DNA of 61,531 bases from Alphaproteobacteria bacterium UBA3760 (GTDB lineage: Bacteria; Pseudomonadota; Alphaproteobacteria; Rs-D84). The stretch is from the NCBI GenBank assembly GCA_002371155.1, contig DFGC01000012.1, positions 1-61,531 of the forward strand, in the 5' to 3' direction. How positions within the stretch are numbered: the first letter of the stretch is position 1; the number at the start of each line of letters is the position of its first letter. Both the position numbers and the translations under genes were made by a program. Positions 13,205 to 61,509 of this stretch are shown in pieces. The notes below the pieces were generated by a model that saw only the letters and a program-made list of their open reading frames with translations, ran no database searches and had not been told where the DNA came from.

Positions 13205-15505
13205 TTATTCTGATTCCGATTTATTAAAATCCACATAGTTGCCTAAAATATTTCCCATTGTGCCACCCGCCGCACCAATACCAACCGCACCCAATCCGGT
13301 ATCTATACGATTTTGTGTATTGGTTGCATCATCGGCAATACGCGATATATCGTTTGGATTTCCAACCGACGCACGATAAAGCGATGCATATGTTCCATTT
13401 TGCACACCCGACCCAACATCATCATATAAACCGGTATATTCGCGTTTGAATACAACCGCCGATTCAATTCCCGGCGCATATCCCAATGCATCTTTGCGTT
13501 CATGCAAATCATCCGCCAACGCAACATATTCGCTGTATAAACCCGTCAAAGCATTTTCGCCACCAACATTTACCGATTTTTCATTAAAACGATACCGCCG
13601 CCCACCAACACGACATTGCATTTTTTGTGTATATGCCGCCATATCCGCCGCCGCCGCGGCGTCCGCCGATTGTGCCGCCAAACCAGACGCCAATTGCATC
13701 CCACCAATTCCCGTCGCCCCAATCGTCGCACCCGACATCAGACGGTTTTTCAACGACATTTCGTTTTCCCGCGCAGACGCATATTCTTCTTCGGCGGCAC
13801 GAATACCATCATCAACACACGCGCCGTTTTCCAAACGATACCCGCGCGCACAGTGCACCGGACGACACACACCATTTACAAATTCGAACCTGTCCGCATT
13901 TGGAAATTGTGCTTTTTCTGATTCATTACATTCGGTCCTGGGTTTTTCCGCGCTTTTCCATTTTGCAACCAAAGTTTTTTTACCACCATTGTTTTCATCA
14001 AACATAAAAGTCCTTTGCGGATTAACACACGCCGCGTCAACACACCAACCATCAAAAACATAACCCGATCGCTGGGGTTCGCAATCAACCGTAAATTGTT
14101 GCCCCACGATATAATTTTTGGGTGCATTATCACAACCGGTTCCACCGCCCAAGTTATAATTTATTGCATAGACCTCTTCTTCGGGTGCCTCTTGCTCTGA
14201 ACTCGCCTGATTTGTTATTACACTGGTATCACCCGCCTTGCACGTTGGATTAAACGAATTTTCATTTGCATCGGGAACAAAGCCTGGCTCACACCATGTC
14301 CTGTAATTACACTGGGATTGGCCATCACTGCCGACCAATTCGCATTTTGCTTTTGCCCCAGGCGCACATTCCGCACATGCAACACACTCACCATTTTGCA
14401 ATATATAACCATTCTGACAAGATTTCGGACGACACACACCACCTACAAATTCGAATTCTTTTACATTTGAAAATTTTGCTTTTTCTTCATCGCTACACTC
14501 TCTTCTCTCTTTTGCTACCGCCGTCCATTTTGCATAAAATGTTTTATCACCCATATCCGTGTCGCCAATCACACGATTCTTTTGTGGGTCATTCAAATCA
14601 TTTGTCGTACACCATCCATCAAAAACAAATTCTGATTTGGTTGGTTGACATTCAATCTTTGTCTGTGCCCCATATGTATGGGTCAAACTGTCGCACCCAT
14701 TCCCACCATTTAAATTTAATGTTATTTGATACATATTTGGTGAACACGACGGATTGTATTTACCGGCATTCTGTTCGTTTCCATATCCGGTCTCGCACGA
14801 TGTTTTATATCGACAATTTTTCAACCCATCACTGCCGGTCATTTCACAATTTGCATGCGTCGGCGAACATGATTGACATGGAACACATACCGCATCATCC
14901 GTATTATCATGTTCCAACACATACCCAGAAACACACTTTGTCGGCATACAAATCACATCTGTATTCTTATCTAAATCTTGGGTATGCGCTCTATTCAATT
15001 CGTGATTTATGCCTGATTGCGCATTTAACCGACCCAATTCTGACTCTGTACATTTATTGTCAGATTTCACACAATCATCTGTTGTAATCGTAATCCCATT
15101 CAAAGTATGCTTTTTCAATTCATATCCAGATTTACAAAAACTTTCATGCCGACAAATTCCTTTGGAACGCGTTGGTCTGCCCATTGAATCCTTGTAATAA
15201 GACAAATAATATCCGTTTTCGTTTCTGCACGATTTTCTGACACAGGTTAAAACATTCTTGCCATTATTTTTTTGTATCTGACATGTTCCTGTTTTTGTGT
15301 TATCACTGCATGAATCGCCATTTTTTTTACCAACACACAATTTATCATTCATACCACCACCAGATTGCGCCCCCGAATACCCGGTTTCTATTCCGCTGGC
15401 ATTCACTGTTCTGGTTGGCCCGCTGTTTGTATTTGCGGCATACACGCCACCAACGCAAAATGCGCAAAACACAAACGCGACAAAAACGCGACAAATGCGA
15501 AACAT
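13205..15505 (-). CDS. Secreted Cys-rich surface protein with two InlB B-repeat-like (Listeria-Bacteroides) domains and conserved Gly-rich C-terminal module
   Basis: Signal MFRICRVF..VYA; ITLNLNGG..GYVFDGW..FYAKW motifs; CxPxxCxxGYxL repeats; C terminus shared with next gene. Confidence 0.8.
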   Translation of the reverse strand: MFRICRVFVAFVFCAFCVGGVYAANTNSGPTRTVNASGIETGYSGAQSGGGMNDKLCVGKKNGDSCSDNTKTGTCQIQKNNGKNVLTCVRKSCRNENGYYLSYYKDSMGRPTRSKGICRHESFCKSGYELKKHTLNGITITTDDCVKSDNKCTESELGRLNAQSGINHELNRAHTQDLDKNTDVICMPTKCVSGYVLEHDNTDDAVCVPCQSCSPTHANCEMTGSDGLKNCRYKTSCETGYGNEQNAGKYNPSCSPNMYQITLNLNGGNGCDSLTHTYGAQTKIECQPTKSEFVFDGWCTTNDLNDPQKNRVIGDTDMGDKTFYAKWTAVAKERRECSDEEKAKFSNVKEFEFVGGVCRPKSCQNGYILQNGECVACAECAPGAKAKCELVGSDGQSQCNYRTWCEPGFVPDANENSFNPTCKAGDTSVITNQASSEQEAPEEEVYAINYNLGGGTGCDNAPKNYIVGQQFTVDCEPQRSGYVFDGWCVDAACVNPQRTFMFDENNGGKKTLVAKWKSAEKPRTECNESEKAQFPNADRFEFVNGVCRPVHCARGYRLENGACVDDGIRAAEEEYASARENEMSLKNRLMSGATIGATGIGGMQLASGLAAQSADAAAAADMAAYTQKMQCRVGGRRYRFNEKSVNVGGENALTGLYSEYVALADDLHERKDALGYAPGIESAVVFKREYTGLYDDVGSGVQNGTYASLYRASVGNPNDISRIADDATNTQNRIDTGLGAVGIGAAGGTMGNILGNYVDFNKSESE
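13326..13795. repeat. 470-bp direct repeat copy 1 (partner 15674..16143)
   Basis: Ungapped, visually >90% identical, encodes EEEYASARENEMSLKN...ISRIADDA. Confidence 0.9.
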
Positions 15506-15567
15506 TTCCCCCTGCAATTCTATCAGAATTATTATATCACAAAACACACAATTTCCAAACGACGAAT

Positions 15568-18210
15568 TTATTGTTTATTTGGCCTATTTATTATCAAATT
15601 TCCACCAACACCGCTCGCCGCGCCGACGCCAGCCACCACCGCACCGGTCTTGATACGCGTTTCTGATTTTGCCGCATCATCGGCAATACGCGATATATCG
15701 TTTTCATTTCCAATCGACGCGCGATAAAGTGATGCATATGTTCCATTTTGCACACCCGACCCAACATCATCATATAAACCGGTATATTCGCGTTTGAATA
15801 CAACCGCCGATTCAATACCGGGCGCATATCCCAACGCGTCTTTGCGTTCATGCAAATCATCCGCCAACGCAACATATTCGCTGTATAAACCCGTCAAAGC
15901 ATTTTCACCACCAACATTTACCGATTTTTCATTAAAACGATACCGCCGCCCACCAACCCTGCATTGCATTTTTTGCGTGTACGCCGCCATATCCGCCGCC
16001 GCATCCACGTCCGCCGATTGTTCGGCAATCCCAGACGCCAATTGCATTCCACCAATTCCCGTCGCCCCAATCGCCGCACCCGACATCAGACGGTTTTTCA
16101 ACGACATTTCGTTTTCCCGCGCAGACGCATATTCTTCTTCGGCCCCCTTTACTTGTTCTTGTAATTTTTTATCGACGCAAACACCGCGACGCAGTATAAA
16201 TTCATCACTTTCACATTCCGATGGCACACATTTTCCATCACGCACAACTAATGTTTTTGCGTGTAATGCAGATTTATTGACATCATCACACATCCAAACG
16301 CACTTGGTCGGATTTTTCGCATTATCAAATTTATATTCATCAATGCACTTTGTCGGAACACAGATTTCACCCCGCACCGCAACCGTTTCCGCATTCAACA
16401 AACCCGGTGCATTCGCATCACAAATTTCAACACACACGCCACTATCCAAATTATACCCATTGACACAATCCGTCGGAACACATTGATTTTCAATCCAATT
16501 TCCACTCGTCGCGTGTAAATTATTTAATTCCGTTGCGGAACATTCACGCGCAAATTTTGCGTGATATGTTTTTGCACCACTTGTCCCCGCCGCAATTTCA
16601 ATTTTAGATTGTGGCGAATCACAATTCGCATCATTTTCACACCAACCCAAAAAACGGAATCCATCGGCAACATCCGTTGGAACATGCTCTATCGTTATGC
16701 CCCTATCATACGCATATTCATAAGTTTTTGATTGTGTTCCACCCGCACCATTATTCCATGACAAAGTAATTTGATATGTTTTGGCATTTGTGCAATATGC
16801 ATTATACGCCCCACTATTCACAATTGTTTCATATCCGGTTTTGCATGCCGTTTCATAATGACATTGCTCATTCACCATACTTAAAACACATGTTGCATTT
16901 GTATTATCTTTGCACGGCAAACAACACAATTTGCCTCCCGTCAGTTCATATTCACCAACACACCCCGTCGGGACACATTGATTATTTTCTGGGCGACCAT
17001 TTAACGCATGCAATCCCGCCAAAACATCCGCGCTGCAAATTTCAACACACACCGCATCATCCGTTCCACCCTTTTCCAAACGATATCCGTCTTTGCACTC
17101 CGTCGGGACACATGGCAACCCTGGTTTTTGCGCTGTTTTCTTTCTTCCTTTCTTTGCATGCAACCGTTTCAAAAAATCATCATTACAAGCATTCTCAACA
17201 ACCAGCGCTTCAACCACATTCTTTTTGATAACCGGTTCTGGTTCCAAATTTATTGTTAAATTTTCACCACAATTTACAATCTGACTTTTATACGTTGAAA
17301 ACCCTACTTGTAATTTGCAATTACTTGGGACATTACTATCCTTAAAATCAAATTTTCCGTCAATATCCGTAGGATGCACCCTGCCAGACGTTCCGGATAA
17401 CTTATCACCGTTTTCATCAACAAAAAATACCGTTGCCCCAGGCAACCCTACCCCATCTTCATCCAACACAACACCACTGACCCGTATTGTTCCGGTCCCC
17501 GTCCGCGCACTGGACGCACCACGCGCCACAACATTTCTGGTATTCTCAACACTTTCTGATTTTTTTGTTTCAACCTTCTTATCGTCCGATTTTAATTGTT
17601 CGGTTGAATTTGACTTTTGTTCCGTATTCGTATTTTCCGATTCCGTGGGCGCAACCGTCGCCACACTTGCGGATTTCTGTGCTGTGGGCGCACTTTCTGT
17701 CTTTGCCGGTTTTTTCGCCGATTCAGGATGCAATTCCGCATATGTTTTTACGCCTTTTTCAATCAACAATTTTTCTATATTTTTACACGGTTTATCATAT
17801 CCATCGCTTTGTCCTTGTTCATTCTTACTTGTACACACCGAATCATTATTTATATGCTCGCGAACAAAGTCCAACAATGTGCCTTTTTTTGTTCCAAACC
17901 CCTGCACAACGGGATAATTTATCTCCGCATTTATATTCGCACCACGATTTACAAACTCTTCAACAATTTTATCACGTCTATTATTACCACAACATTCCGC
18001 AACAGCCAATTCTATTCCAGACATATTTTTATATGTCGGATTTGATATTTTTGCATTGAGCATCTCTGGGTTCTTGTTTAATAAATCCCGAACCCCAGAC
18101 ACATCATCACGCATAATCGCTTTTTCCAAACTAACCGATGCGCCCAACACCGGCGCATGAAACGCGCACACGGCAATCATTATAAAAAAAGCACGATAAA
18201 AACGACCCAT
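15568..18210 (-). CDS. Secreted protein: ankyrin-like N domain, carboxypeptidase-regulatory-like domain, Cys-rich repeats, InlB B-repeat-like domain, conserved C-terminal module
   Basis: Signal peptide; NRGANINA; VSGVVLDEDGVGLPGATV..TDIDGKF; repeated CVPTxCxxxY; paralogue of 13205..15505. Confidence 0.8.
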   Translation of the reverse strand: MGRFYRAFFIMIAVCAFHAPVLGASVSLEKAIMRDDVSGVRDLLNKNPEMLNAKISNPTYKNMSGIELAVAECCGNNRRDKIVEEFVNRGANINAEINYPVVQGFGTKKGTLLDFVREHINNDSVCTSKNEQGQSDGYDKPCKNIEKLLIEKGVKTYAELHPESAKKPAKTESAPTAQKSASVATVAPTESENTNTEQKSNSTEQLKSDDKKVETKKSESVENTRNVVARGASSARTGTGTIRVSGVVLDEDGVGLPGATVFFVDENGDKLSGTSGRVHPTDIDGKFDFKDSNVPSNCKLQVGFSTYKSQIVNCGENLTINLEPEPVIKKNVVEALVVENACNDDFLKRLHAKKGRKKTAQKPGLPCVPTECKDGYRLEKGGTDDAVCVEICSADVLAGLHALNGRPENNQCVPTGCVGEYELTGGKLCCLPCKDNTNATCVLSMVNEQCHYETACKTGYETIVNSGAYNAYCTNAKTYQITLSWNNGAGGTQSKTYEYAYDRGITIEHVPTDVADGFRFLGWCENDANCDSPQSKIEIAAGTSGAKTYHAKFARECSATELNNLHATSGNWIENQCVPTDCVNGYNLDSGVCVEICDANAPGLLNAETVAVRGEICVPTKCIDEYKFDNAKNPTKCVWMCDDVNKSALHAKTLVVRDGKCVPSECESDEFILRRGVCVDKKLQEQVKGAEEEYASARENEMSLKNRLMSGAAIGATGIGGMQLASGIAEQSADVDAAADMAAYTQKMQCRVGGRRYRFNEKSVNVGGENALTGLYSEYVALADDLHERKDALGYAPGIESAVVFKREYTGLYDDVGSGVQNGTYASLYRASIGNENDISRIADDAAKSETRIKTGAVVAGVGAASGVGGNLIINRPNKQ
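15674..16143. repeat. 470-bp direct repeat copy 2
   Basis: See copy 1. Confidence 0.9.
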
Positions 18211-25913: not shown

Positions 25914-28900
25914 TTATATTCCCAACCGATGTGATAATTTCATCATAAATATCGATTCGTTTCCAAACGCATCTGTATTGTTTGGGTTTACGCGATATAT
26001 GAACCCCAACGCACCGTCGGTCCAATCACCAAATTTATGACGATACGACGCATTAAAACGATATTCTCTTTTTTCTGGTGTTAAATCAATATCGCGTTCA
26101 CCTAAATAATTTACAATCAATGCGCCATTTTCATCTACATCAAAATCTGCAAACGAATAACGCATAACACCACCCGTCAATGCCAATGGGACAGACACCC
26201 CAAAATCAAAATTGCCAAACCGCGCACCCGCCGCAAAGGCATTTGATTTCAATTCATCCAATCCCAACACAATCCCATTTGCAATATCCCCAACATGTGT
26301 CCATGCAAATGTTGCGCGCAAAGATAAATCAATATTTTCATCAAACGCATATCGTGCAACCGAATCGATATAATTTGTATCGGCGCCATTCAAATCAAAA
26401 AATCCATAGCCCGCCGCACCCAAAACAGTATTCGATTCGTGCATTGTTCCAACATTCGATACAATCGACAATTTTTCATCACTAAATTTTATTCCTGATT
26501 CTGCGCCCGACGCATCGCCCAATTTTGCTGCCGCGAAATTATTCGACACCACGGGGTCATTTTCCAGCAATCCATCCGTTGTAATATTTCCAACAAACCC
26601 GCGCATGGCAATCGCAAATTTCCCAGACTTTAATTCCGCGCCCGTTGACACTGCATTTGACACCAAACCCAACACCGGATTCGCATGTCCCCAGAAACGC
26701 GATTCGCCATCGGTCAAATAATGCTGATATTCTGATTTTAATCCATACCGGTCATTTGCCCATGCAATCGACAAATTATCCACACCCGACATATTATCAT
26801 CATATAATTTTTCATGACGCGCAAAACCAAATTGCAAATTGCCGAATGATACAGTATTCGCAACATCATGCGTTTTCAATTCACCCAATGTATCACCCAA
26901 ATATAATCCATGCGCCACGCCATCACTCAACATAAATTCATTGTTCCACACGCGCGCCACAGATAATTCTGAATCTTGCGATGATAACACATCATACGCC
27001 GCGACCGGCACAACGACACCACGCGCACCAAATACATTTGTCATACGAACCCCAGATGCCCGGAAACTGTCCCAGAACAAACTATTCCCCGACACGATGT
27101 CACCATTTGCATAATAATAAATTTTTTCATTTGGCGTGACCGCACGTTCCAAATTTATTAAACCATAACCAAACACCTGTTTGAACGCATCCAAATAAGC
27201 CGTCCCCGTCAATGCATCTTTCTGCACAGACATCGTATATTTTGATTTCAGAAACGCAACCAAATCATCGACACTATACCAATCACCCGACGGATTTTTT
27301 GCCAGATATGGCCCATCCGCCGTCAAAGCCAACAAATTGAAAATCGTTTGATTCGACATATATCCAAAAGCTTTTTTCAACGATGCCACCGCCCCAGACA
27401 TCGCCGCAACCGCATATTCTGAATTATCGCCCGGCGCCGCAAAGCACCATGGGTCAACGCCACCAACCCCACTGCCCGCGACACCACACATACGCGAACG
27501 ATATACATTTGTGCCACCATCGTTCCATGTTGACAACTGAACTTTTCCAAACAATGAACCAACGCCATTACCATATTGCGCAACCGTCGTCGCAGCAGCA
27601 GTCCCCAGCACATGTTGAACCGCGACCACAGAAATAAAATTCTTGTCAATTTTATCCGAATACACAACCGGGGCATAATTTTCAAATGTCGCATCCACAC
27701 CCGACGGATAATTTGCAACATTATATCCACCAACCGAATTTACAACAATCGGTGAACCGACATTATAACGACTGAACAAATCGTCTGCATATGCGCCCTG
27801 GCCTGTGCCATACCAATATGCAATCCGTGTTTGAAAATTCGACGATGTTGCACCACCCGCCGAATTAGAAAAACCATCAATCGTGTCATATCCCGACGAT
27901 GTCAACGAATTTGTATTCTGAACAACATTTGCGATAACATCAGGCGTTGGACTTAAACGCAACGCATCATACATTGCGCGATAATTATATATACCACTCG
28001 CACCATCGCCAATTCGATATACCGCCAAAGAACCATACGGCACAAATCCATATAAATCACCCGAACGACCACCCGCCGCCCAACCGGCAACAATTTTCGC
28101 GATATTATTATCCTTCGCCGTTGCCGCCGAATTTTCAACCGCCGTCCCATTTCCAGACAAATCAAAATCTGTATTTTCCGTCCCAACGCAATTCGTGCCA
28201 TTACATCCCGAATTATTATAGTTTTTATATTTATCGACATAACTGACGCCGCCCATAACACTGTCGGCGACCGGTATTCCACCCGCACGCACCAAAGATC
28301 CACTTGAATTGTCTATGCCATTGGCGGTAATCAACGCAACCAGCGCAGGTGTTCCGCCATGAACCTCGGCTGCGACACCAGACATTAACAGAGGAACCTT
28401 GGTCGTTTCATTTCTGAAAATATATTGTCCATAATAACTGTTGGCAAACAAATCATATCCATGCGACATCAGTAAATAATTTTGCATATAATTCGAATCT
28501 GTGGCGGGCAATCCACGCAACCAATCAAAATCAGTTTTTCCAATGGTATTTGCCCAATTATCACCACTGACATTTGCATTTGGATTTATCGTTCCATCAG
28601 TTGCCAAATATGCCGGACTATACGGCACAACCAACGACGGATTGACCGCGTCGTCATCGCCCGTTCCCCCACCCGGGGTATTTCCAGAATGACTGCCTGA
28701 ACCCGTCCCAGAATCATTGTCATTGCCACCGTCGAACGCATCCGTCAACCACAACAAACCGCCAATCACCGCGCCCGCACCGACAACACCCAACAACAAT
28801 TTATGACTGGACGACAGACCGGAAAACATACCTGTATCATCGGCATTTTGATTTCGCGCGCGATAGTTTTTAATCTGTCGATCACATTGCGACGCATCTG

Positions 28901-29153
28901 CGCCATACATTTGTAATATTTGCACCGCACGCATATCGTTATTCATAACCGCAGTGCACACAACCGACACGCCTGTTGAATCGACATAATTTACATCGGC
29001 ACCACTGTTAATTAAATTTTGCACCAAACGCGTATTTCCATTGCGCGCTGCCGACAGCAACTGGGCCGCCATATTAAAATCAGCCCCCGCCGCCATCGCG
29101 CCAACGGGACAAAACACCACACCACCCAAGATAAATTTATTGAATTTCAACAA
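25914..29153 (-). CDS. Ankyrin repeats plus degenerate subtilase-like domain plus putative C-terminal beta-barrel (autotransporter-like)
   Basis: LLSAARNGN..LINSGADVN; WCFAAPG..SGAVA.L..AF..LL..TA..FGYGLINL; alternating beta-strand C terminus; TTG start. Confidence 0.7.
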   Translation of the reverse strand: MLKFNKFILGGVVFCPVGAMAAGADFNMAAQLLSAARNGNTRLVQNLINSGADVNYVDSTGVSVVCTAVMNNDMRAVQILQMYGADASQCDRQIKNYRARNQNADDTGMFSGLSSSHKLLLGVVGAGAVIGGLLWLTDAFDGGNDNDSGTGSGSHSGNTPGGGTGDDDAVNPSLVVPYSPAYLATDGTINPNANVSGDNWANTIGKTDFDWLRGLPATDSNYMQNYLLMSHGYDLFANSYYGQYIFRNETTKVPLLMSGVAAEVHGGTPALVALITANGIDNSSGSLVRAGGIPVADSVMGGVSYVDKYKNYNNSGCNGTNCVGTENTDFDLSGNGTAVENSAATAKDNNIAKIVAGWAAGGRSGDLYGFVPYGSLAVYRIGDGASGIYNYRAMYDALRLSPTPDVIANVVQNTNSLTSSGYDTIDGFSNSAGGATSSNFQTRIAYWYGTGQGAYADDLFSRYNVGSPIVVNSVGGYNVANYPSGVDATFENYAPVVYSDKIDKNFISVVAVQHVLGTAAATTVAQYGNGVGSLFGKVQLSTWNDGGTNVYRSRMCGVAGSGVGGVDPWCFAAPGDNSEYAVAAMSGAVASLKKAFGYMSNQTIFNLLALTADGPYLAKNPSGDWYSVDDLVAFLKSKYTMSVQKDALTGTAYLDAFKQVFGYGLINLERAVTPNEKIYYYANGDIVSGNSLFWDSFRASGVRMTNVFGARGVVVPVAAYDVLSSQDSELSVARVWNNEFMLSDGVAHGLYLGDTLGELKTHDVANTVSFGNLQFGFARHEKLYDDNMSGVDNLSIAWANDRYGLKSEYQHYLTDGESRFWGHANPVLGLVSNAVSTGAELKSGKFAIAMRGFVGNITTDGLLENDPVVSNNFAAAKLGDASGAESGIKFSDEKLSIVSNVGTMHESNTVLGAAGYGFFDLNGADTNYIDSVARYAFDENIDLSLRATFAWTHVGDIANGIVLGLDELKSNAFAAGARFGNFDFGVSVPLALTGGVMRYSFADFDVDENGALIVNYLGERDIDLTPEKREYRFNASYRHKFGDWTDGALGFIYRVNPNNTDAFGNESIFMMKLSHRLGI

Positions 29154-36542: not shown

Positions 36543-39329
36543 TTACATTGGTATATCTTGACTGGTAATCACCGGTTGCGCCATACGCGTGCATACATTT
36601 CCAGTATAATTTTTCACGACACCACCGCCACTGTGTCCACCAATACCAATAAACCAATTAGACCCGCCAAATCCGATACCACCACTGCTGCCATTTTCAT
36701 CGACCGTGTTATAAACATCTTTCATATTTTCACACATAGTTGTATAACTGGTCAATTTACAGGTATCCGTATCCGATGAATAGACCGCATTCATAACAAT
36801 TTTACCAATCATATTGCCAAATGTATCCACCTGAACAAATTCACCGCGTCCAGATTTTTGTTGATTTAACAATTCGTTCATCGTCATTCCGTCAATAACC
36901 AACCGTACATCATATACACCGGGGCGCGCCTTGGATTCACGCAAACCCGCAAAATTATTGCTAACAATTTCTTTGGGCGTCACAGTCAGCCCAGACATTT
37001 TTTTCAGGTTTTGCAACACTGACCCAATTGTCGGTGCCTCGACGAACACATCTGATTTTCCATTATCTACATCGGGCACATCGGTTGCCATCGCCGCACA
37101 CAATGCCGCCTTGATTTCATCGCTTTGTTGTTCCAACGCCCCAGCAACCAATTCATTGTATTTTTTAGAATAATTTTCTGTTGCCTTGTCTAAACCGGCA
37201 TTTACAATTGACATTATCGCAGAATCCAACAAATGCGGATATCGCGCTGTGTCGCGGGTTTCGGAACGTTTGCTGTTTGAACCACGAATTTGCGTCATAT
37301 CGCGCCCGTTCACGCACATACTGATTTTCGGGTCAGATGTCAACAACGCAATCTTTTGATTTATTTTATTTTGTGTCGATTGCAATGTCGATAACACGCG
37401 TCCCTTTATTACAGAAGTCCCATCAACATTTTGTATGTTGTCCGAATAATTTTCGATATCCAATTCATATTTACCAAATTTAACATCATCAGATGTACTG
37501 GTCGTTTCTTTGATTTTAACATTCCCAAAGGTCACCAAACCTTCGATAACAAAACTGCCATCACGCGCCTTGTAACTGGTTAAACTGTCCGCACCCATGG
37601 TTGTGTCATTATCAAATGCCGCACATGCAATATCATCACCACATATTTCGATATACTTTGCATTTACCGCATTTTGACAATTCGTCAGCAAAGAATTATC
37701 TATATCCAAATAAACACCTTGGACAATATTATCGATAACATCCCATGTGGCATCTTGTCCATTTTCTTGGCACGCAATCAGTTTTGCCAACGGACACATA
37801 TCACGAATTGATTGCAAATCCAACCCGACACATTTCGAATAATCAGACCCGCATCGGTCTTCATCGGTCAAACAATTTTTAACCTCGGTCGTGCACGCGT
37901 CAACCCGCATAGATGCCAATCGCGCATAAACATAATCCAAAATTTTTGGTTCGGCGGCAATACACGGTTCAATTTGCACACTGCATAACGCCCGCATAGT
38001 TTCCGGACGCGACAAACACATATCATACGAACCGTCCGGATTACTCGGGTCAATATTATCTTTACACGCGGTCTGGAAACACGATGAAATATCACTGATA
38101 CAATTCATACGCAAATTCGATTCTGCAATCAGTTCCGCAGATTTAATTTCCGGCGCGGCTTCAACCAAGAATGTATCCCACACTTTATCTTTGACGGCAA
38201 CACATTGCTTGGTCACACTTTCGCACATTGTTTTCTTGGCCATCAACACATCGTATGTCCCCGCCGCAATAGAAATATTTGTCGCACCGGTTTTAACTGT
38301 TTTATTTTTCTTGTTTGATTGTAAATTTTGCATTGCAACCGATGACGCACATTTGGAAAAATCATCACCACACCCCGCGGTTGTCTGCATACATTGCTTG
38401 AACCGAATCGTGCATTGCCCCAAATCGTATTTATTAGCATTTTGATATTGCTCCAACGCAGCATCACGCATGGCGGTCTGCGCCGTTTGCAATTTTTTCA
38501 TCGAAGAATTTCTTTGTTGTTTCAAACTGTTTTCATATGCCGTGCAATCAGATTTTATTTGTTGCGCATACATCAATTTCAACATAGACATACTGGCACG
38601 ACATCCCGGAATTTGCGCCGCACACATTGATGACGCCGATGAATACAACGCATCACCCGTTTTGTTTGATATACTATCTTCGGCCGCAAAATCATCTATA
38701 TCTTCATAAACATCATTCCACGCATCCAAATCCAGATTCAGGCTGCGCGTGCGTTTGGCATTACTGGTTGCCGATTGCGCCGCCGCATTTGCCGCACTGT
38801 CCACCATTTTTTGCACTGCATCCGCGTCCGCACCCATATTTATGCGGTCAACCCCCATCGTCGCCATAGCATAACTTTGTTCGTCCAATTTTTGGATTTC
38901 TTCCAACACAGTATCCAATTCCATATGCCGATTACTGCATAAACAACGCCCACCATTGACATTATCCAACATACAAAAAGAATCCATACATCCAAAATAT
39001 TTTGTTCTGCACTCTTCACTGACGATTGTGTTTGTTGTGGCACCGGCAATTTGTGTTCCACTTGATATAACTTTCTTGGTCGTTGCCGCACGCGCCGAAA
39101 CCGCCCCAGATTTTTGTGAACCCAACCCCGTGTTTGTTGCCACCGTCCCAGACCGCCGAACCGCCAAACGCGCAGGCATCGCCAACCCGCCCGACGAAGT
39201 GTTCGCCACATCTGTTGAATTCGTTGTGGCCGGCACACGACGCAATGTCGTCGAACTGCGAACCGCCGCATCCGCCCCAAAACCCACAAAACAACAAAAT
39301 AAAAGATTCAGCGCAATCAGTTTTTTCAT
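36543..39329 (-). CDS. Large secreted Cys-rich protein
   Basis: 928 aa; signal peptide, Arg/Ala/Thr-rich linker, repeated Cx6C..CxxD[YF]SKC modules. Confidence 0.8.
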   Translation of the reverse strand: MKKLIALNLLFCCFVGFGADAAVRSSTTLRRVPATTNSTDVANTSSGGLAMPARLAVRRSGTVATNTGLGSQKSGAVSARAATTKKVISSGTQIAGATTNTIVSEECRTKYFGCMDSFCMLDNVNGGRCLCSNRHMELDTVLEEIQKLDEQSYAMATMGVDRINMGADADAVQKMVDSAANAAAQSATSNAKRTRSLNLDLDAWNDVYEDIDDFAAEDSISNKTGDALYSSASSMCAAQIPGCRASMSMLKLMYAQQIKSDCTAYENSLKQQRNSSMKKLQTAQTAMRDAALEQYQNANKYDLGQCTIRFKQCMQTTAGCGDDFSKCASSVAMQNLQSNKKNKTVKTGATNISIAAGTYDVLMAKKTMCESVTKQCVAVKDKVWDTFLVEAAPEIKSAELIAESNLRMNCISDISSCFQTACKDNIDPSNPDGSYDMCLSRPETMRALCSVQIEPCIAAEPKILDYVYARLASMRVDACTTEVKNCLTDEDRCGSDYSKCVGLDLQSIRDMCPLAKLIACQENGQDATWDVIDNIVQGVYLDIDNSLLTNCQNAVNAKYIEICGDDIACAAFDNDTTMGADSLTSYKARDGSFVIEGLVTFGNVKIKETTSTSDDVKFGKYELDIENYSDNIQNVDGTSVIKGRVLSTLQSTQNKINQKIALLTSDPKISMCVNGRDMTQIRGSNSKRSETRDTARYPHLLDSAIMSIVNAGLDKATENYSKKYNELVAGALEQQSDEIKAALCAAMATDVPDVDNGKSDVFVEAPTIGSVLQNLKKMSGLTVTPKEIVSNNFAGLRESKARPGVYDVRLVIDGMTMNELLNQQKSGRGEFVQVDTFGNMIGKIVMNAVYSSDTDTCKLTSYTTMCENMKDVYNTVDENGSSGGIGFGGSNWFIGIGGHSGGGVVKNYTGNVCTRMAQPVITSQDIPM

Positions 39330-39453: not shown

Positions 39454-40026
39454 TTATTTGCCTGTCGCGCGACGTTTAACCGCAACAGTTTTTTTCGCCG
39501 CCGTCGCTTTGGCCTTTGGCGCATCTTTTTCGGCTTTTACTGTTGTTTTTTTCGCCGCGGATTTTGGTGCTTTGGCTTCGGCATCCGCCGGTGTTGCTTC
39601 TTTTTCAACCGCCGCATTGCTTTCAGTCGCCGCCGGTTTCACAACAGATTTTTTCGCGTTAACATCACGGTCAACCAATTCAATAATTGCCATAGGTGCC
39701 GCATCACCATAACGGAACCCGGCCTTTAATACACGGGTATAACCGCCCGGACGTTTTGCATAACGCACGCCCAACACAGCAAACAATTTTTTAACTGTTT
39801 TATCCGCACCATTGCCCAATTCAGAGGCAATTAAACGACGATTCGCCACAGAATCAACCTTGGCACGTGTAATCAATTTTTCAACAACACGACGCAAATC
39901 TTTTGCCTTGGGTAATGTTGTTTTAATTTGTTCACGTTCAATTAAATTTTTCGCCAAGCCAATCATCAAAGCCTTGCGTGCATTTGTATCGCGATTAAAA
40001 GTGCGACCTGATTTCATGTGTCTCAT
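39454..40026 (-). CDS. rplQ: 50S ribosomal protein L17
   Basis: [24 protein letters not shown]. Confidence 0.98.
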
Positions 40027-40154
40027 TGATTACTCCTTTTTGTTTCTGCCCCAGATTCCTGGGGATTTATCGACACACCATAACCTGGTATTTCTATCAG
40101 TATTATGGGACTTTTACCAAACTTTCCCTATTATTCCAGAAAATTCACCATTTT

Positions 40155-40309
40155 CAAGAAAATAATTTATGTGGGGGAATCGCAACAAGTCCCCACACAA
40201 ATTTTCAAGAAAATAAATTATGTGCGGGAATTGGAAGCGATTGGCGGTTCGCAGTGTAGTTGACCTACATAAGAACCGGCAATCGCGACAAGTCCCCACA
40301 GAATTTATT
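40155..40309. repeat. RPE-like palindromic element between rpoA and rplQ
   Basis: Nearly identical to unit 2 of the 24.6 kb array (gcagtgtagttgacctacataagaaccg). Confidence 0.85.
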
Positions 40310-41344
40310 TTATTTGTAGGGGTCTTCGTATTTCTTGGCCAACTCCGCAATATTTTCTGGTGGCCAACCCGGGACTTCCATACCCAATCCCAATCCCATG
40401 GCCTCTAATTGGATTTTGATTTCATTCAAAGATTTACGGCCAAAGTTTGGTGTTTTCAACATATCGGCCTCGGTCTTTTGAACCAATTCACCCAACCAAT
40501 TGATTTTATCGTTTTTCAAGCAATTATTTGCACGAACCGACAATTCCAATTCATCAACATGCTTCAACAATTTCGGATCAAATGGCAAAGCATCTTTGAC
40601 CTTGTCATCTTCCGCCGGCGCACTGATTTGTGCCGGGTCATCAAAATTGATAAATACAGATAATTGGTCCGTCAAAATGCGCGCTGCAAACGCGATTGCA
40701 TCTTCTGGGGACACAGAACCATTTGTTTTCACCGTCAATTCCAATTTATCATAATCGGTTGATTGACCGACACGCGTTTGTGAAACCGCCGAAGAAACAT
40801 TCAAAATCGGCGAAAAAATAGAATCAACCGGAATAACACCCAATGGCAAATCAACATCATGGGCATTTGCCGCGACATAACCACGTCCCGAATCCAATGT
40901 GATTTCCATATCAAATGTTGCATCTTTATCCAAAGTGCAAATTTCGGCATCTTTATTCATAACATCAACACCCGCAGATGTTTCAATCATACCCGCCGTC
41001 ACAACAACCGGACCACGCGCCTTGATTGTTGCCTTGTGCTGACCCTCGGCATTTGCCTTGAAATAAACACCCTTTAAATTCAATATAATATCAGAAATAT
41101 CTTCACGAACACCGGGCAAAGTGCTGAATTCATGTTGCACACCATCAATTTTTACATATACCGGCGCACACCCCTGTAATGAAGACAACAGAACACGACG
41201 CAACGCCGTTCCCAATGTCAAACCAAAACCCTTTTCCAGCGGTTCAACAATTAATGTTCCAATATTAGGATTTTTTTCATCAACTTTGATGTCCATTCTT
41301 TTTGGCTTAATCAAAGTCATCCAATTTTTTTCAATCATATTCAC
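40310..41344 (-). CDS. rpoA: RNA polymerase alpha subunit
   Basis: [42 protein letters not shown]. Confidence 0.99.
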
Positions 41345-41500
41345 TCCATTCGGCTTAGTTTATTATTTTCGCCAATCGGCACGCATTAAAAAAATCTTTA
41401 ACGCATGCGCCAATTCTATACCGCGATTTTACAAAAGTCAACAAAAACAAGCATTCACAAACAATAAAAAACGGCAAAATTTGCCGTTAAATAAAAAAAA

Positions 41501-41968
41501 CTAACTACCCGATGCAACGCCACCAACAATTTTCACCCATTGCTTAGTACCATTTGCACCAGTTCCCTTTATATAACCACACGCCGAAACATTATACCCA
41601 TTAACGTTCGTGGTATCACAAGCACTCCCTGGTTTTGCCAAACGATCTCCCAAACCAGTAACCGCCGTTCCATTGGCGGTAACAACATTCTGTTGCGTAT
41701 CTGCCCTAGTTTTCAACGCATTAACATCAGAATAAACCGCATTAACCTTGGTACCAACATATTTTGTTGTTGCAACCTTGACAACATCATCTTTGACACT
41801 TTTCTGTGCCGCGGTTGTCGGCTTTCCCGAAACAAATTCAGGATACGCAGGACTAGGACTATCACTTGGGAAACTAAAACCACTATCCGTCACAACCGGT
41901 TGTGCCGCATTTGCCACACCAATCATAAACAGCCCAAAAATCGCCGAAAAAAACAGTATTTTTTTCAT
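41501..41968 (-). CDS. Small secreted protein, core-only member of the KIATTKY family
   Basis: RBS AGGAG, signal ending ANA; VKVATTKY..coiled coil..KPGSAC..CGYI..WVKI. Confidence 0.8.
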   Translation of the reverse strand: MKKILFFSAIFGLFMIGVANAAQPVVTDSGFSFPSDSPSPAYPEFVSGKPTTAAQKSVKDDVVKVATTKYVGTKVNAVYSDVNALKTRADTQQNVVTANGTAVTGLGDRLAKPGSACDTTNVNGYNVSACGYIKGTGANGTKQWVKIVGGVASGS

Positions 41969-42111
41969 AATTTCTCCTAAAAAATCTTCCCTTTAGATAA
42001 AGTCTAGCAAAAATACAAATTTCAACGCAAGCAAAAAACGCAATACATATATTTTTTTATTTTTCCCCAGATTTTTGCACCATACACCGACACAACCGAT
42101 TCGTTTTGTTA

Positions 42112-42143
42112 TAAAAAAATCTGCCGTTTTGGCAGATTTTTTA
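42112..42143 (-). terminator. Terminator after rpsK
   Basis: A-run atctgcc-gtttt-ggcagat T-run. Confidence 0.75.
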
Positions 42144-42161
42144 TAAATACATAATATACAA

Positions 42162-42545
42162 TTACACACGACGCACTTTCTTTGGACGGCACCCATTGTG
42201 CGGAATACGCGTTGTGTCGGTAATCGATTGCACAATTAAACCCGCGTTTGCCAAACCACGCACCGCCGATTCACGACCCTGACCAATACCACGCATCAAA
42301 ACATCAACCGTTTTCATGCCCATTTCTGCAACCTTTTTACCAACCGCATCCGCGACAACCGTTGCAGCATATGGTGTAGATTTTTTTGCACCCTTGAAAT
42401 TATTTGCGCCCGCGGTTGCCCATGTCAAAACCGCACCCGTCGGGTCAGTAATTGTGATACGTGTATTGTTATTCGTCGCAACAACATGCGCAATGCCATG
42501 CGATACTTTTTTTACAACTTTCTTTTTTGCTTTTGTTACAGCCAT
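42162..42545 (-). CDS. rpsK: 30S ribosomal protein S11
   Basis: KKSTPYAA, IPHNGCRP. Confidence 0.98.
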   Translation of the reverse strand: MAVTKAKKKVVKKVSHGIAHVVATNNNTRITITDPTGAVLTWATAGANNFKGAKKSTPYAATVVADAVGKKVAEMGMKTVDVLMRGIGQGRESAVRGLANAGLIVQSITDTTRIPHNGCRPKKVRRV

Positions 42546-42984: not shown

Positions 42985-43143
42985 CTTTTATTTTCCTTTT
43001 TTATTTTACCTGTGGGACGAAATATCGTCCGATTAAAATCCAAAATTTTGGGGTGCCCAAAACTTTGAAACTATTTTGATTTTGTCCGACATATATTATA
43101 ACAAATCAGACAAAAGTCAAATTTTGTTTGCCGTCCGCAAAAA

Positions 43144-58561: not shown

Positions 58562-58933
58562 TTATTTTTTAACCTTTGCCCCATATAAAGAGCGACCTTG
58601 TTTTCTCGATTCGACACCCTTGGTATCCAAAACACCACGAATGATATGATATTTTACACCCGGCAAGTCCTTGACACGACCACCACGAATCATAACCACA
58701 CTGTGCTCTTGTAAATTGTGCCCTTCGCCAGGGATATACGCGGTCACTTCGCGTCCATTGGCCAATTTCACACGGGCAACCTTACGTTGTGCCGAGTTAG
58801 GTTTCTTTGGTGTTGTGGTGTATACACGTGTGCAAACGCCACGTTTTTGCGGACATTCCATCATATCAGGTGCGGTACTTTTGACCACTTTTCTTTTACG
58901 AGGTTTCCGAATCAGTTGATTTACTGTTGGCAT
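58562..58933 (-). CDS. rpsL: 30S ribosomal protein S12
   Basis: [24 protein letters not shown]. Confidence 0.99.
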
Positions 58934-59214
58934 TCAAAATCTCTTTGTTTTTACTTGACTTTTTGTTTACATAAAACAACACCCCAGACCTATTTCGAAC
59001 GCACGCATCCGATTATAAATCTGTCAAAAAGTGCGGTTTTCTGTGTTTTTCCACTTTCCTTGTTTACACGGAAAGCAAAATTAGTATAAACATGAACTTT
59101 GAAATTGTCAAGCAAAATTCATTAAAAAACCGCCAATTTTTGGGTTGTTTTTTGATTCAGCCCCAAAAATCCGCGACATTTAATAAAAAGTGGCAGAAAT
59201 CCGCCACCCGCAAC

Positions 59215-60005
59215 ATCGTCATCCCGCGTGCCGGGGTGGGTATTCCGCCCCATCGGGGAGGGGAATATGGCTGCTTTTCCAACCCCACCCTTGCGGCGGG
59301 GTCGCAGAGCGCAAACATTTGTTTAGCGCGATGCGGGGGCGGGTATTCCTCCCCCGGGCGTCCCCTTCTTTCCCAAAGAAGGGGTGGCAGCCGCAGGCTG
59401 ACGGGGTAATTTGACACAATCCCATACACACCGGATGCCCGAACCTTTCACAACTACCTCCCCCCGCTAGCGCGGGGTACTCCTTCTTTCATAAAGAAGG
59501 AGAATATCCAAGTTCGACCATTTCATATTCCCCGTCTTTTACCGCCCCCGCGGAAAAGAAGGGGTGGATTGTGAGCAAAGCGAACAAGACGGGGCAGTTC
59601 AGTATAATCACACCCTCCCCGTCGCTGCGCGCCACCCCTCCACAGGAGGGGAATATGACTGCTTTTCCAACCCCGCCCTTGCCCGGGCCCCACGCAAATT
59701 CTTTGCGTGGGTGGATTCGGCGGGGTCGGCAAGACAATGTGAAACACTTGTCGAGCCGGGGGCGGGTATTCCTCCCCCGGGCGTCCCCTTCTTTCCCAAA
59801 GAAGGGGTGGCAGCCGCAGGCTGACGGGGTAATTTGACACAATCCCATACACACCGGATGCCCGAGCCTTTCACCCTCCCCGTCGCTGCGCGCCACCCCT
59901 CCTGTGGAGGGGAATATTCCGCCCCAATCGGGCCCCGCCGCGGCGCAATTTGCGACGGGTGGGTGGTGCCTGGGGAGGGGGACCAACGAAGTTGGTGGAG
60001 GGGGT
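59215..60005. repeat. GC-rich mosaic of REP-like palindromes including a 108-bp direct repeat (59335..59442 and 59758..59865)
   Basis: Recurrent ccttctttcccaaagaagg, caccctccccgtcgctgcgcgccacccctc, ggaggggaatat. Confidence 0.85.
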
Positions 60006-60036
60006 AAACAAAACACGAAACAATAACAAAAACAAA

Positions 60037-61509
60037 TTACATATCCGGGCCGGCGGTAAAAGTTCCCGTTCCCGCATTGGTAAAGAATTGCCCCGACACC
60101 ATATCATACATACCAACGACACCCGATGAATTTTTTGCCGGGATACCATTAAATACTAATTTATTATTATCGTTATATATTTTTACATATCTCCAAGAAG
60201 AACTACTTTTATTATAACTTGATGTTGTTTTGTCGTTATTTGTTTTACCTATCCACAAAGATAAATCTGAATTTGAAAAAGATTCTCCTGCCAAATTATT
60301 AGATTTTAATACATCATTTATATACAGCCCATCTTTTGTTATTTTATAATTATAAAACGTATTTGTTGTAACATCCAAATTTGATATAACTGCATTCATT
60401 CCGGTTCCACCTTTACCCCAAAACGAATGCCCAGAACTGTTTGCTAATCCAAATTGAGCTCCCCAAACAGTAGAACTCCAAATACCAGACCCCGCGCCAA
60501 AAAAATAATCCCCAGCCTTTGGAACAGACATTTCAAATTGAGCAGACCAATTCCAATTCGTGGCTACGATTCCGGTATCAATCCATGAATTTCCATCCGT
60601 TTGTAAATACTGCAATTCCGTGTATCCGGCGGGGAGTGCATGCGCGACACCATTTGCACCCGCAATCGGATACCAATGCGGGGTGCCGTCTTCATCCTCG
60701 ACCAATAAACAGTATTTCGCCGTGCATCCCTCGTCCGGGCGGGTTTGCTTTTCATTCGCAATTTGGTCTATTTGCTGCGCCTGACTCATCGTCTGGGTCA
60801 CGACAGTATCCACCGCCGCAACCGCCGCGTCTAAACGCGTTTCCACCGGCGCAAATTGTCGTTCGTTATACCGCGTCGTTGCAATTTTGATTGATACCGG
60901 CAGCCCCGCGATGAATTCACCCGTGCCCGCATTGGTATGAAACGCAGTTTCTGGATTTGCATCCGCCAAATCATACATACCCAACACACCATCGCTATCA
61001 CGCCGTGCCGGTATACCGTCAAATACTAAACTATCATTTTTTGAAGCCTTGTAATAGTAAATTTTAACATTTTTATTTTTATAATTAGTACCACTACTGT
61101 TGTTAAGATTAAATAAATACAACATAGAGGACCCCACCCTACCGTTTGTATATGTTGTGCCATTGGTTTCGTTCGTAAAATACCATCTGGTGTCCAAAAC
61201 ATTTTGCTTTATAATGTAAACCCCAGGTTCACTTGTACCATAACGCCTATCTTTTACACCTACCTGAGATGCACCGTTCACAAACATAAAACCTGATGAA
61301 TCATTCACAGTTTCAAATTTTAATTCCATATAATCAATCGTTGCTTCGTTCACATTAGTATTAATCCATTGTGTTCCGGTGGATTCGATGTATTCCAATT
61401 CGGTATATCCGGCGGGGAGTGTTGCCGCATGGGCGACATTTAATATAAACATGCATGTGACGGCCGCCAACACTAATTTTAACGAATCGAATATACGCAA
61501 AAATTCCAT
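60037..61509 (-). CDS. Secreted modular protein: signal peptide, two phage-tail/ConA-like 'LPAGYTELEY' domains flanking the KIATT core
   Basis: 490 aa; LPAGYTEL.Y...G..WI.T..., GIPA...G..GMYD...F.TNAGTG.F.AG twice; core shared with 15..1760. Confidence 0.82.
   Translation of the reverse strand: MEFLRIFDSLKLVLAAVTCMFILNVAHAATLPAGYTELEYIESTGTQWINTNVNEATIDYMELKFETVNDSSGFMFVNGASQVGVKDRRYGTSEPGVYIIKQNVLDTRWYFTNETNGTTYTNGRVGSSMLYLFNLNNSSGTNYKNKNVKIYYYKASKNDSLVFDGIPARRDSDGVLGMYDLADANPETAFHTNAGTGEFIAGLPVSIKIATTRYNERQFAPVETRLDAAVAAVDTVVTQTMSQAQQIDQIANEKQTRPDEGCTAKYCLLVEDEDGTPHWYPIAGANGVAHALPAGYTELQYLQTDGNSWIDTGIVATNWNWSAQFEMSVPKAGDYFFGAGSGIWSSTVWGAQFGLANSSGHSFWGKGGTGMNAVISNLDVTTNTFYNYKITKDGLYINDVLKSNNLAGESFSNSDLSLWIGKTNNDKTTSSYNKSSSSWRYVKIYNDNNKLVFNGIPAKNSSGVVGMYDMVSGQFFTNAGTGTFTAGPDM

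Follow-up and report, generated by a model that had tools for sequence, protein, structure and literature searches.

What kind of protein is encoded between rpsK and rpoA in an uncultured alphaproteobacterium? The question is raised by a 155-residue open reading frame (ORF) on contig DFGC01000012.1 of Alphaproteobacteria bacterium UBA3760, and the window referred to below is the whole stretch of 61,531 nucleotides that was analysed. An earlier note on this DNA had described the product as a signal peptide, a short linker and a core common to longer secreted proteins, preceded by a strong ribosome-binding site (RBS) and interrupting the series rpsM-rpsK and rpoA-rplQ, and had taken it for a highly expressed major subunit of pilin type. 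The anatomy and the position were confirmed by the ORF list, by NCBIfam equivalogs of the neighbouring genes and by profile searches, and the strong RBS by an AGGAG placed 5 nt before the ATG, whereas the proposed function fared less well. Our preferred reading, to which we give a probability of roughly 0.55, is that the small protein is a secreted, disulfide-stapled and probably homotrimeric stalk with polymorphic exposed ends, and the minimal member of a lectin-like family.

The relationship with the longer proteins had been proposed from a motif match, and the spacings concerned are exact: VKVATTKY is followed after 41 residues by KPGSAC in the small protein, and IKIATTKY after 42 residues by RPDESC in a 581-residue protein of the same window. 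Pairwise BLASTP of the small against the long proteins was by itself not significant (E 0.04-0.08), and the match therefore needed to be tested with profiles. For the small protein, a database search retrieved 13 homologs, with identities of 39-92% and, except for one with an upstream-extended ORF, lengths of 142-158 residues; it also retrieved five fragments with a long-type core. The HHalign comparison that the earlier note had proposed as a check, here of 14 small homologs with seven long cores, gave a probability of 95% and an E value of 3e-8 over 76 columns, from ATTKY to W..I. As a non-circular control, a hidden Markov model (HMM) built only from 28 small-type proteins, with their signal peptides removed, was run against 131 full-length long-type proteins; all 131 scored between 15.6 and 38.2 bits, and the best of 262 reversed or shuffled decoys scored 4.5 bits. 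Within VKVATTKY (residues 63-70), A66 is present in 100% and T67 and T68 in more than 90% of the members of both subfamilies. The other columns common to the two are I/V103, L106, R/K109, P113, C117, C130, G140, W144 and I147, of which R/K109 is conserved and P113, C117, C130, G140, W144 and I147, together with T141, are invariant across small and long members. At the level of sequence, the homology of the core is real.

A joint profile of this KIATT-core, searched against 1.84 billion cluster representatives, matched at least 357 clusters at E<=1e-3, of which 289 also pass E<=1e-10; the matched proteins are 118-1173 residues long. The core may stand at the C-terminus, in the middle or near the N-terminus of these proteins, and signal-peptide-like leaders are common at their N-termini. 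Two subfamilies can be distinguished by the residues that follow the second Cys. In 28 clusters these are C-G-Y-[IV], and all 28 are core-only proteins of 118-173 residues in which no flanking LamG/concanavalin A (ConA)-like domain was found; in 139 clusters they are C-L-L-V, and these proteins carry extra domains, the few short ones being fragments at contig ends. According to the column statistics, the heptad d position 99 is Asn in 100% of the small type and Gln in 100% of the long type. The linker motif [STNA]-[YFH]-P-x-[FYW] (AYPEF here) is conserved across the 28 small-type proteins, and each of the four GTDB species genomes with a match contained the small-type pattern once. Because of these subfamily-specific residues, the linker motif of its own and the single occurrence per genome, the small ORF can be assigned to a separately conserved orthologous group and is more than a truncated copy of a neighbour.

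Neither the small ORF nor either of the two long paralogs in the window matched a family in Pfam (searched at E<=1 for the small ORF), NCBIfam, PHROGs or PADLOC, and a full-text literature search found the core motifs in no paper. The KIATT-core thus defines a large, lineage-restricted and previously uncharacterised family of secreted proteins. A phage origin of the core was considered and rejected, as neither the small nor the long protein had a relative among the 50,697 phage records searched by tblastn, and two scans of IMG/VR, with small- and long-core patterns, did not find the core.

The N-terminus of the small protein, MKKILFFSAIFGLFMIGVANA↓AQP, combines a basic n-region with a hydrophobic core of 15 residues and an A-x-A site of the signal peptidase I (SPase I) type (VANA↓AQP), with M1, K3 and A21 invariant in the alignment of 14 homologs. 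A lipobox Cys is lacking, as is any other Cys around the cleavage site, and the mature protein starts with a polar stretch rich in Pro and Ser. The linker is followed in order by VKVATTKYV, a long helix, KPGSAC...ACGYI and NGTKQWVKI, and the C-termini vary among the 14 aligned sequences (...ASGS, ...VIQ, ...IITQ, ...VIQK). An AlphaFold2 (AF2) model built from these 14 sequences contains the signal-peptide helix at residues 4-19, a helix at 53-110 and hairpin strands at 127-134 and 142-148, the predicted local distance difference test (pLDDT) score being below 50 for residues 14-42.

The heptad register of the helix is unbroken (d71, a75, d78, a82, d85, a89, d92, a96, d99, a103, d106, a110). 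Every a position is Val, Ala, Ile or Leu, and polar residues are found at d only, as Gln92 and the invariant Asn99. Polar residues that are concentrated at d and nearly absent from a are a reported feature of the stalks of trimeric autotransporter adhesins (PMC13580157). Because its beta-branched residues occupy a and d and its polar Gln/Asn layers are restricted to d, the coiled coil is probably a parallel trimer of about six heptads. The conserved Cys pair and the Sec signal similarly point to a C117-C130 disulfide, which would probably be formed in an oxidising compartment.

Comparison with known structures gave weak matches of one kind. The core profile run against all PDB sequences yielded only sub-significant matches (E >= 0.022), all of them to trimeric fibres, namely the P22 tail needle gp26, fibritin, reovirus sigma-1 and autotransporter stalks; in the gp26 match, ITANTKAITAL is aligned with VTANGTAVTGL of the small protein. 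Phmmer of the small protein against PDB gave no match, and no Foldseek match of the small model in PDB reached E<=1e-3, which is no surprise for a fold of a single helix and a hairpin. T4 fibritin and P22 gp26 have a similar architecture, in which a short beta-hairpin with a conserved Trp caps the C-terminal end of a parallel coiled coil, and they gave the best PDB profile matches, which cover the helix only and are not significant (E 0.022-1.3; fibritin 1avy, E 1.3). The small protein differs from both by its Sec signal peptide, its cysteines and the absence of its core from phage. Homology to the foldon was suspected from the hairpin and rejected, as none of the many foldon-tagged PDB constructs was matched by the core profile.

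The trimeric autotransporter adhesins, which are extracytoplasmic fibrous proteins of Gram-negative bacteria, also have a heptad coiled coil with a hydrophobic a and polar Asn/Gln layers at d, and VTANGTAV of the small protein resembles the I/V-x-x-N-T-x-x motif of their stalks. These likenesses do not establish membership. In contrast to these adhesins, the small protein has no YadA-type beta-barrel anchor, head or neck domain among Pfam matches, is only 155 residues long and ends with some 40 residues that form the disulfide loop and the hairpin, and its PDB matches have E >= 0.02.

The comparison of strains gave the strongest, though indirect, argument for exposure of the protein. In a locus of the same species (L001), the RpsM, RpsK and RpoA proteins are 100% and SecY is 99% identical to those of the window, but the small protein is only 61% identical. 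In windows of 100 nt, DNA identity to L001 is 93-100% across the flanking ribosomal genes, whereas within the small gene it is 44% at 41877-41792 (linker) and 41% at 41604-41508 (Cys loop and hairpin), and 91% in the coiled-coil segment at 41791-41692. Four same-species loci, with flanking rpsK and rpoA proteins 98-100% identical to those of the window, were compared with it. Their DNA identity is 97-99% in rpsK, 92-99% in rpoA and 94-99% in the upstream promoter spacer, against 66-87% in the small gene. The synonymous divergence (dS, Nei-Gojobori) is 0.22-0.73 in the small gene and 0.03-0.13 in the flanks, and in three of the four strains the value of the gene is 4-7 times that of the flanks; in the exception, L016, rpoA has a dS of 0.38 and the small gene 0.28. 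The ratio of nonsynonymous to synonymous divergence (dN/dS) is 0.38-0.58 in the small gene and does not exceed 0.05 in the flanks.

The alignment further resolves three modules with two or three allele classes each, which are combined differently in P0002, P0003, P0005 and P0009. High dS and the shuffling of modules together indicate that old alleles of the small gene have been kept and recombined, which goes beyond a mere relaxation of constraint. Such a pattern is typical of exposed antigens, receptors or recognition molecules, and it argues against a housekeeping role in the periplasm as well as against a monotonous structural 'major subunit'. In their divergent old alleles and mosaic recombination inside near-identical flanks, polymorphic surface-antigen loci (fliC, cps, O-antigen) are similar; the small protein is unrelated to their products and the likeness is one of population genetics only.

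The putative promoter of the small gene (Table 1) was spotted by eye and by conservation, and a generic promoter scan did not list it. Together with the Shine-Dalgarno sequence (SD), it forms the best-conserved part of the upstream spacer in six loci, although protein identity among these is only 36-61%, and the purine-rich SD is conserved in all six. The terminator-like hairpin after rpsK is found at the same place in L004 and L010, and the one after the small ORF has an equivalent in L010 and in L012, a locus of a lineage in which the gene is linked to efp. Upstream of rpoA, TTGACT-17-TAAAAT stands in L010 and L004 at the place of the promoter-like sequence of the window. In the efp-linked lineage, efp is followed by a terminator, an extended -10 promoter, TGATATAAT, the small gene and, last, a strong terminator.

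The small gene is thus predicted to be an insulated monocistronic unit between an rpsM-rpsK and an rpoA-rplQ unit, and the alpha operon to be split into two transcription units in this clade. With terminators on both sides and promoters before the ORF and before rpoA, the small gene would lie outside the ribosomal transcript, and its location would then say nothing about its level of expression. The codon adaptation index (CAI), calculated against the ribosomal genes of the window, is 0.60 for the small gene, 0.49-0.62 for most other genes (up to 0.67) and mostly 0.66-0.73 for ribosomal proteins, rpsL alone being at 0.56; codon bias is a weak discriminator of expression in this genome. The claim of high expression is borne out neither by location nor by codon use, and the compact promoter and the RBS would allow the gene to be well expressed.

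The earlier note had proposed to look at the position in relatives, and the arrangement rpsK-X-rpoA, X being the small gene, is kept in nine related loci (L001, L004, L007-L010 and L015-L017), which come from independent rumen metagenomes and metagenome-assembled genomes labelled as uncultured (alpha)proteobacteria. In a second, more distant lineage (L011-L014), a small-type gene is located after dnaN-efp, with efp and fbaA as neighbours (6001-6516 in L011 and about 4001-4520 in L012, L013 and L014). Since the gene lies elsewhere in that lineage, its ribosomal location appears to be specific to one lineage. In both lineages it adjoins a highly expressed translation gene, which may be a coincidence.

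The rpsK-rpoA gap also holds other ORFs. In L007 (3062-3766) and L010 (4930-5766) it contains an extra ORF resembling hexapeptide-repeat transferases, and in L004 (4502-5203, minus strand) and L008 an unannotated ORF of 214-233 residues on the opposite strand. The upstream spacer of the window aligns with the terminator hairpin that follows the transferase in L010 (GGCGCAGAAATCTGCGC versus GGTGCAAAAATCTGGGG), which suggests the gain or loss of a gene at this site. Insertion of a mobile element was rejected, as repeats at the flanks, direct or inverted, do not exceed chance, and GC content and codon use are typical of the genome.

Table 1. Features of the small-gene locus and of the two long paralogs in the window.
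Feature	Position	Strand	Details and basis
Small-type core-only protein, coding sequence	41501..41968	-	complete, 155 aa; ORF list, 13 homologs, 14-sequence alignment
Sec signal peptide, residues 1-21	41906..41968	-	read from sequence; SPase I cleavage predicted after V-A-N-A
Pro/Ser/Thr-rich linker, residues 22-59	41792..41905	-	predicted disordered; one of two allele-swapped segments
KVATTKYV motif and unbroken heptad helix	41633..41791	-	a/d positions 71d-110a
P113, C117...C130 loop, CGYI...NGT-x-x-W-x-x-I beta-hairpin	41525..41632	-	second allele-swapped segment
Shine-Dalgarno AGGAG	41974..41978	-	5 nt before ATG at 41968; sequence
Putative promoter of the small gene	42001..42030	-	-35 TTGCGT (42030-42025), 18-nt spacer ending TGC (extended -10), -10 TAGACT (42006-42001)
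Terminator-like hairpin after rpsK	42113..42143	-	ATCTGCC-AAAAC-GGCAGAT and U-run; -15.8 kcal/mol, z = -4.2
Terminator-like hairpin and T-run after the small ORF	41462..41488	-	scan; fold -9.3 kcal/mol, z = -2.7
Promoter-like TTGACT-17-TAGAAT upstream of rpoA	41413..41441	-	10/12 match
rpsK (uS11), upstream neighbour	42162..42545	-	NCBIfam equivalog, E 5.5e-48
rpoA, downstream neighbour	40310..41344	-	NCBIfam equivalog, E 4.6e-143
Long-type paralog, 581 aa	15..1760	+	core ~660-914; motif and profile match
Long-type paralog, 490 aa	60037..61509	-	signal peptide, LamG/ConA-like domain, core ~60655-60909, second LamG/ConA-like domain

The long paralogs of the window are 38% identical overall and nearly identical in the core. 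The AF2 model of the 490-residue paralog (112 sequences, pLDDT 73) shows two beta-sandwiches, separated by a helix at 213-252 and a hairpin at 267-281. Its Foldseek matches in PDB (E 5e-3 or weaker, per-domain probability up to 1.0) are LNS/LamG domains of neurexin, agrin and laminin and, further, a putative carbohydrate-binding protein of Bacteroides, the lectin wings of sialidases and the binding domain of botulinum neurotoxin (BoNT). A Pfam search of 93 long members gave three Laminin_G_3 matches and one legume-lectin match, the core being covered by no Pfam family. In the viral library BFVD, the model matched uncharacterised proteins of gut sipho- and myoviruses (E 6e-11 to 5e-8), as well as many phage proteins named 'ConA-like lectin'; this resemblance to phage is structural only and limited to the LamG-like variable domains of the long paralog. 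The suggestion that the long members are adhesins stands to the extent that LamG/ConA-like folds make ligand binding plausible, whereas the minor tip-adhesin role in a pilus that had gone with it is not supported.

In collectins, too, a coiled-coil neck adjoins lectin-fold domains, and by that likeness the long paralogs would be multivalent. Their domains are LamG/ConA-like and not C-type, flank the neck on one or both sides, are bacterial and come with no collagen region, and the resemblance is an analogy, not a homology. At the DNA level, the two long cores, which lie on opposite strands, are about 90% identical over about 210 nt with sharp edges, and the flanking domains cannot be aligned. 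This would fit domain shuffling or gene conversion, in which the core may serve as a recombination joint. The small-type core stands outside this homogenisation.

In the preferred reading, Sec export would release a mature protein of about 134 residues that is only the oligomerisation core of the LamG/ConA-carrying family. This core would consist of the ATTKYV motif and a parallel coiled coil some six heptads long, followed by a loop closed by a disulfide and by a beta-hairpin that contains Trp and acts as a cap. In the oxidising extracytoplasmic space, these proteins would assemble into homotrimeric stalks. They would be made from an insulated monocistronic transcript that starts at the gene's own promoter in the gap between rpsM-rpsK and rpoA-rplQ. 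The linker and the Cys-loop/hairpin would represent old divergent alleles that recombine between strains around a conserved coiled coil and promoter, as would suit an exposed molecule under balancing or diversifying selection exerted, for example, by phages, by grazers or through self/non-self recognition.

Several points weigh against it. The confidence of the small-protein model is only moderate (pLDDT 65), and the trimeric state, the disulfide, the surface exposure and the nature of the selection are all inferred. No cell anchor is visible, be it a lipobox, a beta-barrel or a sorting signal, and in a diderm a Sec substrate reaches only the periplasm unless there is a further export step. 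Misalignment of the swapped segments could account for part of the raised dS. Heterotrimers with the long paralogs would also be compatible with the sequence.

A bolder proposal, which we put forward as a speculation with the odds clearly against it, is that the small protein is the single-copy keystone of an undescribed surface-display system in uncultured rumen Alphaproteobacteria. Its [ST]-Y-P-x-[FYW] motif or its polymorphic tip would dock or organise trimeric LamG-lectin paralogs, and the placement next to rpsK/rpoA or efp would provide a recombination scaffold that moves old alleles between strains under frequency-dependent selection.

The absence of a visible route across the outer membrane for a Sec-exported protein would also suit a periplasmic envelope protein, either a spacer or tether, trimeric and similar to Lpp, or a SadB-like trimeric helper for the export or trimerisation of the long paralogs. 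Braun's lipoprotein Lpp, likewise small and exported, consists essentially of one coiled-coil helix, and the small protein resembles it in length and by its helix of about 58 residues; the gene is also single-copy and conserved across the clade. The small protein differs from Lpp by having neither a lipobox nor a conserved C-terminal Lys, and by its disordered N-terminal linker, its C-terminal Cys loop and its hypervariability between strains. For the helper function, one paper (PMC3953254) offers a precedent, in which a trimeric coiled-coil lipoprotein assists a trimeric adhesin. Mosaic segments with 41-44% identity inside flanks that are 97-99% identical in DNA would be unexpected for a housekeeping spacer or chaperone, and we consider a periplasmic role unlikely.

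The proposal of the earlier note, that the small protein is an abundant major subunit of a fibre or pilus which the long LamG paralogs join through their cores as minor tip adhesins, draws on the core common to both, on the strong RBS and compact promoter, on the presence of one small-type gene and many long paralogs, and on the location just downstream of highly expressed rpsK or efp in two lineages. It is set back by the terminators that insulate the small gene from rpsK and efp and by a CAI that is not elevated. Type IV and chaperone-usher pilins are similar in having one short and many longer variable members with a common module. However, the small protein has neither the class III signal peptide of type IV pilins (G↓F/M-T-L-x-E) nor their hydrophobic mature N-terminal helix, and the Pfam and NCBIfam searches that were run gave no pilin domain. 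No assembly gene (PilB/C/D/Q, chaperone or usher) adjoins the small gene in either lineage, and none of the ten other large ORFs scanned in the window had a Pfam match related to pilus assembly. A major pilin subunit with an SPase I-type site and none of these attributes finds no support here. Co-assembly with the long members is weakly opposed by the different invariant residues of the core layer, N in the small and Q in the long type, and by the lack of DNA homogenisation between the small core and the long ones; moreover, the core resembles a closed trimerisation module rather than a polymerising one. Altogether this model appears quite improbable.

The discrete allele classes, recombined in all combinations on a conserved scaffold with variable ends, would also suit a polymorphic recognition factor for kin or strain discrimination, similar to a pherotype, in which the swapped Cys-loop and linker alleles set the specificity. 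The protein is small, secreted and Cys-containing, and dS well above that of the flanks in three of the four strains is in line with such a role. In neither lineage, however, is the small gene flanked by a cognate receptor, kinase or immunity gene, and pressure by phages or grazers would explain the polymorphism equally well, which leaves this possibility a poor one. Finally, the idea that the ORF is spurious or is left over from a decaying long paralog, for which the other insertions accepted by the rpsK-rpoA gap in L007, L010, L004 and L008 might speak, is effectively refuted. The reading frame is intact at all loci examined, the 28 small-type clusters are uniform in length, the subfamily-specific residues are invariant, dN/dS is below 1, and promoter, RBS and terminator are conserved.

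Other features of the window were recorded beside these results. Upstream of the small gene lie rpsM, secY and the rest of the spc/S10/str cluster, and rplQ (39454-40026, minus strand) is located beyond rpoA, all identified as NCBIfam equivalogs. RplQ has 190 residues with a C-terminal extension rich in Ala and Lys, and partly matches the NCBIfam 'L17 sunset domain variant' below its cut-off (113 versus 280 bits). Directly downstream of rplQ, a 928-residue Cys-rich protein with a signal peptide (36543-39329, minus strand) has no match in Pfam, NCBIfam, PHROGs or PADLOC, and every related locus that extends this far has it in the same place (59-96% identity). The 490-residue paralog stands immediately upstream of the str operon (rpsL-rpsG-fusA-tuf; the positions concerned are 60037-61509 and 58562-58933, both minus strand), and the ribosomal supercluster is thus punctuated by three secreted lineage-specific proteins, the 490-residue, the small and the 928-residue one. 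The secY-rpsM gap (42985-43143) lacks adk, infA and rpmJ, the cluster lacks rpsD, and a terminator-like hairpin follows secY at 43069-43039.

The rpoA-rplQ spacer (40027-40309) is unusually long at 283 nt and contains direct repeats of 36 and 29 nt (40150-40306), and its segment 40213-40166 is only 42% identical to that of the same-species locus L001. Between the 490-residue paralog and the rpsL promoter region, a GC-rich island (59200-60000; 56% GC at 59001-60000 versus about 43% in the window) is made of nested direct repeats, with a 123-nt unit present twice at 98% identity and units of 46 and 28 nt present three times each. Its longest ORF (59489-60016, CAI 0.30) is probably no gene, and there was no Rfam match at gathering thresholds. 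A protein of 1079 residues (25914-29153, minus strand) has N-terminal ankyrin repeats whose Pfam scores reach or narrowly miss the curated cut-offs; such repeats are a frequent sign of a host- or eukaryote-associated lifestyle. Two adjacent large ORFs at 13205-18210 (minus strand) encode 780 residues with Listeria-Bacteroides repeat domains and 880 residues with a carboxypeptidase-regulatory-like domain, the latter scoring below the cut-off.

The kind of molecule described here, an exported coiled-coil fibre with lectin heads in the longer forms, is familiar, while its module is in no family library searched and was matched by no solved structure. At least 357 clusters of secreted proteins, most of them with lectin-like domains, are built on this module in poorly known Alphaproteobacteria of the gut and rumen, and the core-only protein, with 134 residues in its mature form, one helix and one hairpin, gives a compact and experimentally tractable handle on the family. 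A mosaic gene of old alleles with its own promoter inside a ribosomal cluster is an unusual combination, and it provides a clean natural case of such polymorphism within one of the most conserved gene clusters of bacteria. If it is exposed at the surface, the small protein would be a candidate strain marker, phage receptor or recognition determinant in organisms that have never been cultured.

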